Shown here piece after piece: positions 22,117-40,543 of a stretch of 64,000 nucleotides of DNA. Both the position numbers and the translations under genes were made by a program. Source of the stretch: a phage; sequence record PZ386971.1. The stretch is one strand, 5' to 3'. How positions within the stretch are numbered: the stretch's first letter is position 1; every line of letters starts with the position of its first letter. The notes beneath the pieces were generated by a model. That model worked only from the letters and a program-made list of their open reading frames with translations. It was not told the DNA's origin and did not search any database.

Positions 22117-22128
22117 ATTGAAGAACGA

Positions 22129-37381: not shown

Positions 37382-37552
37382 TTGCAAATCACTATACCAT
37401 ATAAAGTTTATTGAACAAACATTTATTTTACAACAAACTGTATTGGCGGGGTCTGAGGCTTTTCACCTCACCTGCTGGGTTTGGCCGCCCAGCCGTTCTC
37501 TATGAGGATTCACTGTCCGGACAGCTATCCATTAAACTATCGCCCCTCAATA

Positions 37553-37629: not shown

Positions 37630-39450
37630 AAATTATTGTGTGACCAACCAAGGACTGTCAACCCTTTATCCCGTTTGTGCATGATCAGTTCATACAGGCC
37701 TCTTTGTGCTGCCTCACGGCATGCGCTTCTGTTGGTCATTGGCTTACACTGTGGCCTCACAACAGGCGTTTATTTTTCCAGGGCTTTCCACTTACAAGTC
37801 TTAACCAGACCGGGATACGGGCTTGTAAGATCGGGTTGGACACAACTTTGAGGACACTGACGACGTATACGAGTCACCCATAACAGATATTCGGATGCCA
37901 GTGTCCTCAAAGTTGCAACCAATGTCGCAACTCGCAGCTTCCATACAGAAGCAACTTGTCCTCTAACGCTCGGACCAAACGAGGCTGGCTGGTTGATTCA
38001 GAGCCGCTGGTTGCTCCAGCAAGCATGGGTTGATAGCCCGGCAACATAGAATCACCCAAAGATGAAGAACATTCATGACTCACATCACACCACGAATGGC
38101 CTGAAAGAGAATCGAACTCTTTAAATACTCTTCATTTTGTGAACTTGAGAATACTACGCCTGTCTCGGGTTTCCCCTTAGTTCGGCCTCCCAGTCCTCGC
38201 CGCGCCGGGTAGCTAACCCTGATGGCTCGTCTGCTACTGAGTTCTTCTTGGTGCCCACCAGTGTCCGGAATGTGTAGACATCGCAATCTGCAAGGCATGG
38301 TCTATTTCACCCAATGCTCTCTCAAGTTCACAAATCGAAGTGCCCTGACTCAACAGTATGGCCCAATATGCTGTTATCGTCCACCGGATTGGCCGCCCAA
38401 TTTGTAGATCAACCTTTGGGTTTAAGATAAATTGTCAAGGCACTTCGATTTGTGTGCCCTTCACCTGCCAGGGATCAGGGCTGATGGCAAGACTTCGCTC
38501 ACATCTTTCAAGATACTCGTGAGAATATCCTCAAAGATGTGGAGCCGTTTTAGGGAGTCGAACCCAAATGCTCGGCCAGCGCTGACCTTACATCCCATCT
38601 GACTTAGGCAACCCACCTCTGCTTACTCAGGAGCTTATCCCCTTTGGACAGTCAGATATAACGGCATTGTCGACGGGAGCTTATTAATCACACCCTCCCG
38701 TCTATTGTTAGTGCGCCGAATTTGTTGATGAGGAATCGGAAGACCTCACTGACTTATAGGCTATTACGCCGCCATCAGAACTTCGGAATCATTAGCAGTT
38801 ATTTGCTTGGTCAGTTTCTAAAACCCGCAAAGTCACGCACAACGAAAACGAAAACCTGTTTGAGTCCTAAACGTACCTGTCTTGGTCTCACAACACTATG
38901 AGTGGCCAGGACTCAAACAGCTTGCCGTTCAGTGGGTTAACTATACTTTGTAACCCGTTATTGATAAAACCTTTTATTTTTGTTGGCGAGGGCGTCACCA
39001 TCGATTTACCGGAACTTACGCATCCGGCCTCGCCTGTTGGTGCTCCTTCGAATCCGGGAAGATTAGTAGGAACTATGAATCAAGTTAATTCGACCAACAG
39101 GAACCTTGTTGCCCTTTGACGCAACATTATGAACCCTCTGTGAAGACTCATAATGTTGTCGGCGTGATGGAGATTAGCGCCCCCGACCTCCCCTTATACG
39201 TTGGTGTCGACTTGCCAACAGGGTGCTCTCTGATTCTGAGCTAATCACGCTACAACAGGGAGTTTCGTTCTCCGACGGTCAGTGCGTCCACCGACACCAG
39301 CGAGGTTGATATTACGCCTCTATTCGTCACGGTGCCCTGAGACTGGGCTTTCCTGGTTTCGGGTTCCAACCCTACTCCCACCGCGCTATTCGCCTCGTGT
39401 TTAATACTTTACTACAGCCCAACTAATTTGAAAAGTCCTCTCCTCTTTGA
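37630..39450. other. ORF-poor, hairpin-rich region with tRNA-like fragments (possible ncRNAs or degenerate tRNAs)
   Basis: About 1.8 kb with only short overlapping ORFs; 12-16 bp perfect inverted repeats at 37848/37899, 38329/38440, 38868/38905; T-loop-like GGGTTCGACTCCC at 38552-38566. Confidence 0.3.
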
Positions 39451-39451
39451 G

Positions 39452-39598
39452 CTACACTGCCCACAGCAGTGCGGACGAACCTGAACTCAAAACCGGATGC
39501 GCCGAAGTGGGCGTCTGTTTACCGGACTGATCGGGTCGACCCAGGAGAGAGCAGGTAATCCCGATCAGAAGGATGAGGAGTAACATCATGTAAAACAT
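39452..39598 (-). CDS. small hydrophobic peptide (48 aa; signal-peptide or TM-like)
   Basis: ATG at 39598 preceded by GGGAGGG; N-terminus MFYMMLLLILLIGITC; below the ORF-track length cutoff. Confidence 0.35.
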   Translation of the reverse strand: MFYMMLLLILLIGITCSLLGRPDQSGKQTPTSAHPVLSSGSSALLWAV

Positions 39599-39655
39599 AG
39601 TGTTCCCTCCCTTCCATGCAAATAACTTTACTGCAATTATTTATTGAATAAAGCG

Positions 39656-40225
39656 TTATTTTAACACTTCTAACTTCACAACACGACGCAGAAGGTAAAC
39701 ATATTCGCCAGCAGCTTCATGCGTCATATAATGGGTAGAAGGTGTGGAATGAGTGTTCTGGGTTTCTTTTAATCCAACGCGTTCAGCCCAACCATTAATA
39801 GAGTTTCCATAGAAACCGATAATCGCGCCAAAATAAATGCGCCCGCTTTCTGGCTCTAAAACGTAGTTGACAGTGAAGCAAATGTCCGAACGAATAGACT
39901 CCAGTTTCATACCAACACGACCTTCAGAGAATTCGTTACGAACATATAAATGACGGAAACGATTACGCCGCGCTTGTGATGATTCTTCCATTTCTTGTCG
40001 AAGCGAAGAAGTTATGTCAATATTAAATGAAAATGTTGGATTTCGTAAATCAGAACGGGCCAACTCTAAGGCAGATTCAATAACGCGACGGAAATTGATA
40101 CTTTTACCTGTCAGGCGTTTCACTTCTTCGGTGATTGTTCCAAAAGGGATTTTCGTGGCGCGTTCCCCTTCGTATTTTGCTAACAAAGGAATAATGTGTT
40201 TCATAATTGCTGTGTTAATGTGCAT
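39656..40225 (-). CDS. hypothetical protein
   Basis: 189-aa ORF, last minus-strand gene before the divergent region. Confidence 0.5.
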   Translation of the reverse strand: MHINTAIMKHIIPLLAKYEGERATKIPFGTITEEVKRLTGKSINFRRVIESALELARSDLRNPTFSFNIDITSSLRQEMEESSQARRNRFRHLYVRNEFSEGRVGMKLESIRSDICFTVNYVLEPESGRIYFGAIIGFYGNSINGWAERVGLKETQNTHSTPSTHYMTHEAAGEYVYLLRRVVKLEVLK

Positions 40226-40543
40226 TCCGGAGCCTCACTCGATTGATTAAATGTCTCCGTTATTATATTGGGAGTATGTTTATTGAATATAAACACAGGA
40301 ATGACCAACAAAATAGGAGCGCGGTTTATTAATAGGTAAAAACTACTTTTCTACAACATCAAGAAACTGTATCCTAACGCAGTGCCCTTCGAGTTGTGAG
40401 TGTCAACGAACAACGAGAAGCAGCCTCCATGGCTGTGGAATGGTGCTGCCCGCATAGGGCGGTGTTACGAGCGAGGGCGTCAGCCCCCTCGCGAGTTATA
40501 TTCGAATAAATTAAACGCGCGCGAGAGTTTTGATTCCCGTTGG

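Follow-up and report, generated by a model that had tools for sequence, protein, structure and literature searches.

The window analyzed here is a stretch of 64,000 nucleotides (sequence record PZ386971.1) from a phage of the ViI-like type (family Ackermannviridae). Over the 700 bp surrounding the locus under study, identity to Enterobacter phage fGh-Ecl02 (Kuttervirus) is 96%, and a megablast search with these 700 bp matched 228 phage records. The minus strand carries a small ORF of 48 codons followed by a TAG stop codon (39452-39598; ATG at 39598-39596, TAG at 39454-39452), which belongs to the phrog_8415/Vi01_178 family and whose conceptual translation is MFYMMLLLILLIGITCSLLGRPDQSGKQTPTSAHPVLSSGSSALLWAV (48 aa). 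It is preceded by the Shine-Dalgarno sequence (SD) GGGAGGG (39605-39611, minus strand) located 6 nt 5′ of the ATG, which confirms the minus-strand 48-aa ORF with a well-spaced GGGAGGG that had been proposed by a sequence-only reading of this DNA. The SD is invariant in our alignment apart from three sequences, in which it reads GGAGGG (L013), AGGAGGG (L037) and GGGGGG (L055). The 5′ neighbor of the ORF is a gene for a 189-aa protein (39656-40225, minus strand) assigned to phrog_3788 (unknown function). On the 3′ side follow about 1.8 kb lacking credible ORFs, up to the tRNA-Met gene (37629) of a tRNA-Met/Asn/Tyr/Ser cluster that closes this ORF-poor stretch. The part directly downstream of the ORF is likewise structured and non-coding. 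At its 5′ border, this conserved and structured region with few ORFs begins with the ORF described here. In relatives the ORF is flanked by the 189-aa phrog_3788 gene, the divergent gene of the gp6 baseplate wedge and the RNA/tRNA region. In five annotated relatives, the 3 kb to each side of the ORF contain no lysis genes (endolysin or spanin), and a role as holin or lysis cassette protein was rejected for want of this genomic association.

Two further readings of the same nucleotides were discarded. The overlapping +2 frame (MEGREHYVLHD...) loses its ATG in L055 and has polymorphic stop positions, and a tRNA-like interpretation of GTAGCTCAAAGAGG at the 3′ end of the ORF fails as the D-stem varies (GTAATTCAAAG in ViI) and both ARAGORN and Rfam return nothing. 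In a chance test with dinucleotide shuffles, the window was found to contain 9 ATG-initiated ORFs that comprise 40 or more codons and are preceded by GGAGG at a distance of 4-10 nt, compared to 2.4 ± 1.6 in the shuffles; with the stricter SD GGGAGG there is one such ORF in the 64-kb window versus 0.66 expected. An ORF with this SD is therefore within chance expectation for 64 kb, so that evidence for a gene has to come from conservation.

The intergenic block upstream of the ORF (AAATAACGCTTTATTCAATA...CAGTAAAGTTATTTGCATGG; 39600-39662, minus strand) is promoter-like and near-invariant and constitutes the best-conserved stretch of the alignment. It contains TTCAATAAA and a TAnnnT box, which is TAAAGT in the window (39630-39625) and TATAGT in L055, in a promoter geometry with non-canonical spacing. 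The motif TTCAATAAA was considered as a uniform promoter family, an idea abandoned in part, as three of its seven copies are located just past stop codons and before terminator hairpins; only four copies occur in promoter-like contexts, the non-canonically spaced copy before the ORF being one of the seven. A second promoter-like element (TTTTCA, 17 nt, TAAAGT; 39406-39434, minus strand) is placed directly past the ORF domain, its -10 box variants TAAAGT, TATAGT, TATCAT and TAGAGT all conforming to TAnnnT. Just past this element is the mosaic breakpoint of the region downstream. Transcription of the ORF may begin at a site of its own near 39618, or a well-formed promoter near 40287 may serve both the 189-aa gene and the ORF, there being no terminator between this promoter, the 189-aa gene and the ORF.

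Family and distribution

The peptide matches the phrog_8415 profile with E = 3.4e-32 over positions 1-48 of 48, and the Taipeivirus form matches it with 3.4e-29. In relatives the product is recorded as a hypothetical protein under the names Vi01_178 (type phage ViI), phiSboM-AG3 gp183, CPT_Mutine_042 and EP75 ORF174, the version of Klebsiella phage Magnus being the 57-aa CPT_Magnus_040; the database entries CBW38046.1, YP_003358670.1 and AUG88174.1 represent the same gene. Synteny is unchanged in the annotated relatives, in which the ORF follows the 189-aa phrog_3788 gene and lies opposite to the gp6 baseplate wedge gene. Annotation is patchy: about half of the annotated relatives' records omit the ORF and the rest list it as a hypothetical protein. 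The description as unannotated given by the sequence-only reading thus applies to this window and not to the lineage, where the ORF is catalogued both as hypothetical protein in relatives and in PHROGs (phrog_8415). As a gene, it is an already catalogued ORFan of ViI-like phages.

A word-indexed search of 5.8 billion proteins revealed 15 clusters in the family, and a full HMM scan of 1.84 billion representative proteins revealed about seven family members; the profile search detected no relatives beyond this family among these 1.84 billion proteins, so that the family is a very narrow one. Every database member is encoded on an Ackermannviridae-like contig with synteny kept. Searches against Pfam and PADLOC gave no meaningful match to the peptide. 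On the nucleotide level the locus matches 270 phage records. By tblastn, the full 48-aa frame was recovered without gaps in 199 of about 203 kuttervirus and agtrevirus records, and the Taipeivirus form in all of about 50 taipeivirus records with 98-100% identity, a value scored over residues 13-57 of the 57-aa form with residues 1-12 outside the match. Altogether the intact frame is present in about 250 records of Kuttervirus, Agtrevirus and Taipeivirus, and SD, ATG and open frame were found in every sequence examined from these three genera. The sequence-only reading had made its proposal depend on conservation of the frame in relatives, and the frame is indeed conserved across the three genera.

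Limestonevirus does not contain the ORF. The Dickeya limestoneviruses retain only the upstream block of about 65 nt, which survives there despite different downstream cargo, namely another, unannotated ORF that encodes a Cys-rich product of 52 aa and is preceded by an SD of its own. As a different small ORF follows the same block, the slot behaves like a small-gene cassette. A metagenome scan with the upstream motif, which is independent of the peptide, yielded three loci, one of them a chance match.

The peptide and its coding signal

Within the ORF, a protein-level signature is restricted to the part encoding the N-terminus (codons 1-20, MFYMMLLLILLIGITCSLLG; 39539-39598, minus strand). Residues 1-20 are near-invariant and strongly hydrophobic, with KD19 values over residues 1-19 of 2.1-3.1 in 14 of 14 family members, and AlphaFold models residues 2-20 as a helix (pLDDT about 90). 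Replacements within the helix exchange one hydrophobic residue for another; one member carries Arg16 and Asn3. Across the 14 members the first charged residue is found at position 16-26. The tail (codons 21-48; 39452-39538, minus strand) shows no amino-acid constraint, its DNA being constrained as RNA helices. AlphaFold predicts it to be disordered (pLDDT <50 at residues 27-40), its net charge ranges from -2 to +3, and the region past the helix is not conserved. The family peptides are 47-63 aa long and end in three unrelated C-termini (...GSSALLWAV, ...SxQDFRSCxS... and ...DGSPQIFGV), which arise by -1 indels over otherwise conserved DNA.

The single-TM peptide suggested by the sequence-only reading is compatible with this N-terminus, as judged by the KD19 values and the modeled helix. 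From hydropathy and structure prediction, the product is probably a membrane peptide with one helix, for which a single-pass or a tail-less arrangement is the reasonable reading. A product that is secreted or anchored as a lipoprotein, its signal peptide being cleaved and its Cys lipidated, the other option raised by that reading, would fit the hydrophobic N-terminus and the Cys16 of the window sequence, yet it is contradicted by the conservation data and highly improbable. The Cys just after the hydrophobic stretch exists as residue 16 in the window, but family members have C, F, L, Y or R at this position and the Cys is replaced in most lineages. The lipobox [LVI][ASTVI][GAS]C (PS51257) is not matched in any family member, the window sequence being G-I-T-C with Thr at -1. 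None of the 14 members has a K/R in its first five residues, and since a basic n-region is absent from every member the N-terminus is not a classical Sec signal peptide. Moreover, the supposed mature part would consist of about 30 disordered, unconserved residues, the frame of which differs among lineages.

Coding potential was analyzed in an alignment of 31, later 33, distinct DNA sequences and in an unbiased subset thereof, limited to sequences that had been obtained independently of the peptide. None of the 31-33 aligned sequences has a stop in frame 0, and polymorphic stop positions number 12 and 7 in the two alternative frames. In the unbiased subset, 71 changes predict 2.8 stop gains and none was seen (P = 0.06), with 6 and 4 polymorphic stops in the alternative frames. 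An RNAcode-like test on codons 1-23 of the unbiased set gave a synonymous fraction of 0.32 in frame 0 versus 0.08 and 0.12 in the other frames and a mean substitution score of +1.15 versus -1.75 and -0.78, a score reached by 4 of 300 column shuffles. For codons 24-41 the same test revealed no coding signal (47 of 300 shuffles reach the score). Codons 6-12 display a three-base periodicity of the type xTC/xTG, and codons 19-20 vary only synonymously (CTG/CTA; GGT/GGA/GGC). In-frame indels (-6, -3, -3) were rejected as coding evidence because of ascertainment bias, all of them coming from loci fetched via the peptide.

The substitution rates at the three codon positions are flat. Parsimony changes at positions 1/2/3 amount to 50/55/62 for codons 2-41 of the ORF, as compared to 330/240/863 for the adjacent 189-aa gene in the same genomes, so that third positions of the ORF are about threefold more constrained than those of the neighboring gene. 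Restriction to unpaired sites gives 37/50/43, restriction to codons 24-41 gives 30/38/31, and the window and phage Magnus differ by 15/12/15 changes. It follows from these flat rates that most of the conservation acts at the RNA level. Several replacements, i.e., D23Y, D23G and the combination of F2T with Y3I, are radical for the protein and compensatory for the RNA. With these data taken together, the ORF is probably translated, with protein-level constraint confined to the helix, as the substitution pattern in its N-terminal codons suggests. In the literature no transcriptomic, ribosome-profiling or proteomic data for Ackermannviridae were found.

A conserved fold over the ribosome-binding site

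A consensus fold was calculated with RNAalifold on the 215-column alignment. Two of its helices, a closing helix (columns 1-5 with 207-211) and a GAGGAG/CUUUUC hairpin, were left out of the consensus, as they show no covariation and overlap the second promoter-like element. For the 44 local pairs that remain, 98.3% of the cells are paired, and 16 pairs show double-sided changes compared to 6.6 ± 1.4 in shuffles (reached in 0 of 500) and at most 5 in slid controls. Hairpin I (39571-39615, minus strand; 16 pairs, 98.6% of cells paired in 26 sequences) pairs the GGGAG of the SD with CUCCU of codons 7-8, and UAUGU, which contains the AUG, with ACAUG of codons 3-4. It has a stability of -15.0 kcal/mol (z = -2.4) in the window and -16.1 kcal/mol (z = -3.3) in Klebsiella phage Magnus. 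In taipeiviruses the U-A pair beside the AUG is changed to A-U, the replacements F2T and Y3I being its two sides. By these computations, the message of the ORF folds into a conserved RNA that hides its own SD and AUG.

Three further local hairpins follow on the minus strand. Hairpin II (GAUCGGG...CCCGAUC with an inner 3-bp stem; 39529-39566; -16.6 kcal/mol, z = -2.8) has double-sided changes in three of its seven outer pairs, namely G-C to C-G in taipeiviruses, C-G to A-U in L037 and G-C to U-G in L055; the replacements D23Y and D23G result from the first two of these swaps. A 4-bp hairpin (CGCC-CACUUC-GGCG; 39499-39512) has double-sided changes in two of four pairs. The 3′ compound hairpin over the stop codon (39449-39488), composed of an outer stem, a 2-bp stem and an 8-bp stem (GCACUGCU/GGCAGUGU), has compensatory changes in 9 of 14 pairs, and its main stem exists in four covarying sequence versions. 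Taken as a unit, the 214-nt domain has no exceptional stability (z = -1.25), so that the evidence for structure is evolutionary. Rfam gave no match for 39408-39621 and only sub-threshold, chance-level matches elsewhere in the region. The interval 39000-40400 is free of terminator-like sites and no U-run follows any of the conserved hairpins; a leader-peptide attenuator was rejected, as a terminator/antiterminator alternative is absent from it. The RNA architecture appears to be undescribed, though it is of a known kind.

The CU-rich anti-SD tract CUCCUCAUCCUUC (codons 7-11; 39568-39580, minus strand) is common to hairpin I and to a proposed long-range helix, and it is near-invariant even at third codon positions. 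Its candidate second partner is a likewise near-invariant purine box, AAGAGGAGAGGA (39436-39447, minus strand), an SD mimic located 5-16 nt past the stop codon, which may act as anti-anti-SD. When SD and AUG are forced to be single-stranded, the MFE fold pairs the purine box with the anti-SD in eight of eight divergent sequences, the opening costing +1.3 to +7.8 kcal/mol. The resulting helix has 10 pairs, which are pairable in 99.6% of cells. It shows no double-sided covariation, and as its variation is of the wobble type only, the long-range helix is compatible with the data and not proven by them. In L054 the anti-SD changes from CUCAUCC to CUUCUCC together with a change of the box from GAGAGGA to GAGAAGA, by which a contiguous helix is kept. 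The purine box could compete with the SD for the anti-SD.

Interpretation and comparison with known systems

In the reading that we favor, at a probability of about one half, the ORF is a genuine small gene confined to this lineage (phrog_8415, Vi01_178), and it encodes a translationally throttled single-helix membrane peptide, the mRNA of which is a conserved structured RNA. The product would work through one N-terminal TM helix of about 20 residues, and the other 27-42 residues would form a disordered tail, the sequence of which would be immaterial. In the ground state, the hairpin of -15 kcal/mol would lock SD and AUG against the Leu/Ile codons of the helix, which would serve as anti-SD, and translation would be throttled because both elements are locked. 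The purine box, mimicking the SD past the stop codon, would take over the anti-SD for a few kcal/mol and free the ribosome-binding site (RBS), giving a three-element layout of SD, anti-SD and anti-anti-SD. By analogy, the peptide may act on the membrane, and in the course of infection it may be tolerable only if its dose is low or delayed. A more far-reaching version, which we consider unlikely, is that the virulent phage carries a self-contained, antitoxin-less module resembling a type I toxin, in which the dose and timing of a membrane-active peptide would be set entirely by the three-element RNA switch contained in the ORF and the sequence directly behind it. If this were true, the RNA would be a dual-function molecule at the head of about 2 kb of conserved structured non-coding RNAs, and the peptide would be an effector of host takeover or membrane priming.

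A rather unlikely alternative is a structured RNA that is purely non-coding and would be either an independent small RNA or the leader or 5′ domain of the ORF-poor RNA region next to the tRNA genes. The SD would then be the purine strand of a helix and the hydrophobic ORF its pyrimidine partner, the open frame being incidental. A pyrimidine-rich pairing strand will encode Leu, Ile and Phe in one frame, whether translated or not. The flat codon-position rates with the roughly threefold constraint on third positions, the strong covariation, the amino-acid changes that follow RNA pairing, the three unrelated C-terminal frames and the structured, non-coding nature of the adjoining downstream region all agree with a non-coding RNA; the occurrence of one ORF with SD is within chance expectation for the 64-kb window, and the invariance of the ATG needs no coding explanation as the ATG is base-paired. 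However, frame 0 alone lacks stops throughout the alignment, stops coming and going freely in the other frames, the changes within codons 1-23 are significantly more conservative in frame 0 than in the column shuffles (4/300), the xTC/xTG periodicity runs through codons 6-12, codons 19-20 show synonymous variation only, and no Rfam family is matched.

The third possibility, which is quite unlikely, is a regulatory leader ORF, for which the act of translation would matter and not the peptide. Passing ribosomes would either rearrange hairpins II-III together with the purine box or protect a C-rich, G-poor tract against Rho, and would thereby tune read-through or stability of the transcript entering the downstream structured-RNA and tRNA region. 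Such a role would account for a frame that stays open though most residues are unconstrained, for a stop codon located in or just before conserved RNA elements and for the ribosome reading through the purine box in frameshifted lineages; the lack of a terminator between the ORF and the downstream RNA region and the existence of alternative pairings are also in line with it. On the other hand, with the second promoter-like element (39434-39406) the downstream RNAs need not depend on read-through, neither a terminator/antiterminator pair nor a regulatory codon run is present, and the protein-level signature in the N-terminal 20 residues would be superfluous for a pure leader.

Confirmation of the gene alone adds little, as it is a catalogued ORFan. 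The useful result is that the ORF for a tiny, presumptive membrane peptide is coupled to a covariation-supported fold that hides its own RBS, so that a virulent phage offers a concrete case in which gating of small-protein translation by RNA structure can be tested. The RBS-hiding fold also explains why gene callers disagree over the ORF. Furthermore, ORFs of this type are misjudged by ordinary dN/dS or codon-position reasoning, as the signal is flattened by the constraints on the RNA. ViI-like phages are widely used as biocontrol and therapy phages against Salmonella, E. coli O157 and Klebsiella.

The hypothetical proteins of phrog_8415/Vi01_178 represent the same gene without any difference in sequence, but their database entries assign no function and omit the overlapping RNA structure. 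RNAIII/hld, SgrS/SgrT and SR1/SR1P are dual-function RNAs that encode small peptides, and they likewise contain a short ORF in an RNA whose structure is under selection; in contrast to these, the phage RNA has no known base-pairing target or regulatory role. For early transcripts of T4 gene e, a hairpin occluding the RBS was reportedly described by McPheeters and colleagues in 1986, and relief is achieved by a late promoter inside the hairpin. This is likewise a phage mRNA with SD and AUG buried in a local hairpin and with translation depending on RNA context. In the ORF analyzed here, however, both hairpin arms are downstream of any plausible start site, so that relief would need refolding, processing or a helicase.

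The type I toxin mRNAs, such as hok, aapA1 and aapA3 of H. pylori and timP of Salmonella, likewise encode a hydrophobic single-helix peptide of <60 aa, and their mRNA structure is more conserved than the peptide, as is the case for the phage ORF. Unlike type I systems, the phage element resides in a virulent phage and not in a chromosome, plasmid or prophage, its peptide has no sequence similarity to known toxin families in profile searches, and neither an antisense or divergent antitoxin RNA nor a promoter for one was found at the ORF domain. In the window and five divergent relatives, the antisense strand of the domain has no sigma-70-like promoter except for one weak, non-conserved match, and therefore a defining feature of type I toxin-antitoxin systems is missing from the domain. 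The features shared with type I toxins are the small hydrophobic peptide with one predicted helix and the predicted mRNA fold occluding SD and start codon. In the aapA3 toxin mRNA the SD-sequestering hairpins lie inside the ORF (PMC6733600), and in the phage ORF the anti-SD of the SD-hiding hairpin is also located inside the ORF. In timP the RBS stem-loop is opened through a long-range interaction with a distal element (PMC13000454), and the phage purine box may do likewise. By this analogy, and claiming resemblance of design only and not membership of the class, the phage mRNA appears to be built like those of type I toxins.

The ORF-poor stretch upstream of the tRNA cluster

Between the small hydrophobic ORF (phrog_8415) and tRNA-Met, the minus strand of the window contains an ORF-poor stretch of about 1.8 kb (37630-39410), which is a candidate for a set of novel structured phage RNAs. 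It is mosaic between relatives, and blocks within it are conserved across genera far above the level of the flanking genes: 38668-38523 and 38456-37934 (minus strand) show 97-99% identity to Klebsiella/Serratia taipeiviruses, and 37849-37634 (minus strand) shows 92% identity to Dickeya limestoneviruses. Long inverted repeats with arms of 19-24 nt are numerous in the stretch. Rfam returned no family match for it, and a tRNA search found none in the window's copy or in 12 relatives.

At 38535-38570 on the minus strand, the sequence GGGTTCGACTCCCTAAAACGGCTCCAC looks like a T-arm followed by the 3' acceptor strand of a tRNA or tmRNA; it matches the Rfam tmRNA model partially, with 10.5 bits only. 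A sub-threshold match to the Rfam permuted tmRNA (20 bits) lies at 38764-38914. ARAGORN found nothing.

In some relatives an HNH homing endonuclease gene is inserted into the ORF-poor region (related loci L002, 817-1272; L042, 4257-4733; L045, 3818-4294), and these insertions are consistent with its mosaic make-up.

Mosaic segments and genes around the small ORF

Directly 3' of the second promoter-like element, the minus-strand segment 39290-39405 is mosaic: the window and the related loci L007, L011, L013, L047, L048 and L037 have at least three versions of it that are unrelated to one another. Equivalent hairpins are retained in every version, for example CCCnAGUCUCAGGG versus GUCCUAGGACGAGGAC, and the versions rejoin at ...ATATCCACCTCGCTGGTGTC, so that they look like exchangeable RNA modules.

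The slot of the hydrophobic ORF itself, 3' of the conserved upstream block, is taken in limestoneviruses by an unannotated minus-strand ORF of 52 aa, MKTKKLVLKQKTGMTAFPVIKHMQTTNVCPTCGRRDNDGGPMCMKTFCDGGN (L017, 2771-2929; also in L053), which has the Shine-Dalgarno sequence AAGAGGA and four Cys residues with a zinc-ribbon-like spacing. The gene 5' of the small ORF (39656-40225, minus strand; 189 aa, Vi01_177, phrog_3788) has no match in Pfam or PADLOC; it shares only about 65% identity with its Taipeivirus orthologue, so that the intergenic block directly 3' of it is better conserved than the gene.

Promoter-like elements and the repeated nonamer

The nonamer TTCAATAAA has seven exact copies in the window, all on the minus strand. 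At 22122, 24746 and 29175 it comes directly after a stop codon and precedes a GC-rich terminator hairpin with an AT-rich loop; at 40287, 39648 and 37415 its contexts are promoter-like, as is that of a variant with one mismatch, ATCAATAAC, at about 38965.

On the minus strand, a promoter-like element of its own also appears to lie immediately upstream of each of tRNA-Asn (TGTTCA-15-TATAGT, 37397-37430) and tRNA-Met (TTGACA...CAATAAT, 37640-37670). This arrangement suggests that the two form separate transcription units rather than a single tRNA operon.

A further minus-strand promoter-like element, TTATCA-16-TATAGT (38935-38975), is followed 3' by a perfect 13-bp hairpin (CTGTTTGAGTCCT...AGGACTCAAACAG; 38855-38929), and a near-identical copy of element and hairpin is present in Dickeya phage LIMEstone1 (limestonevirus locus L017, 2560-2640).
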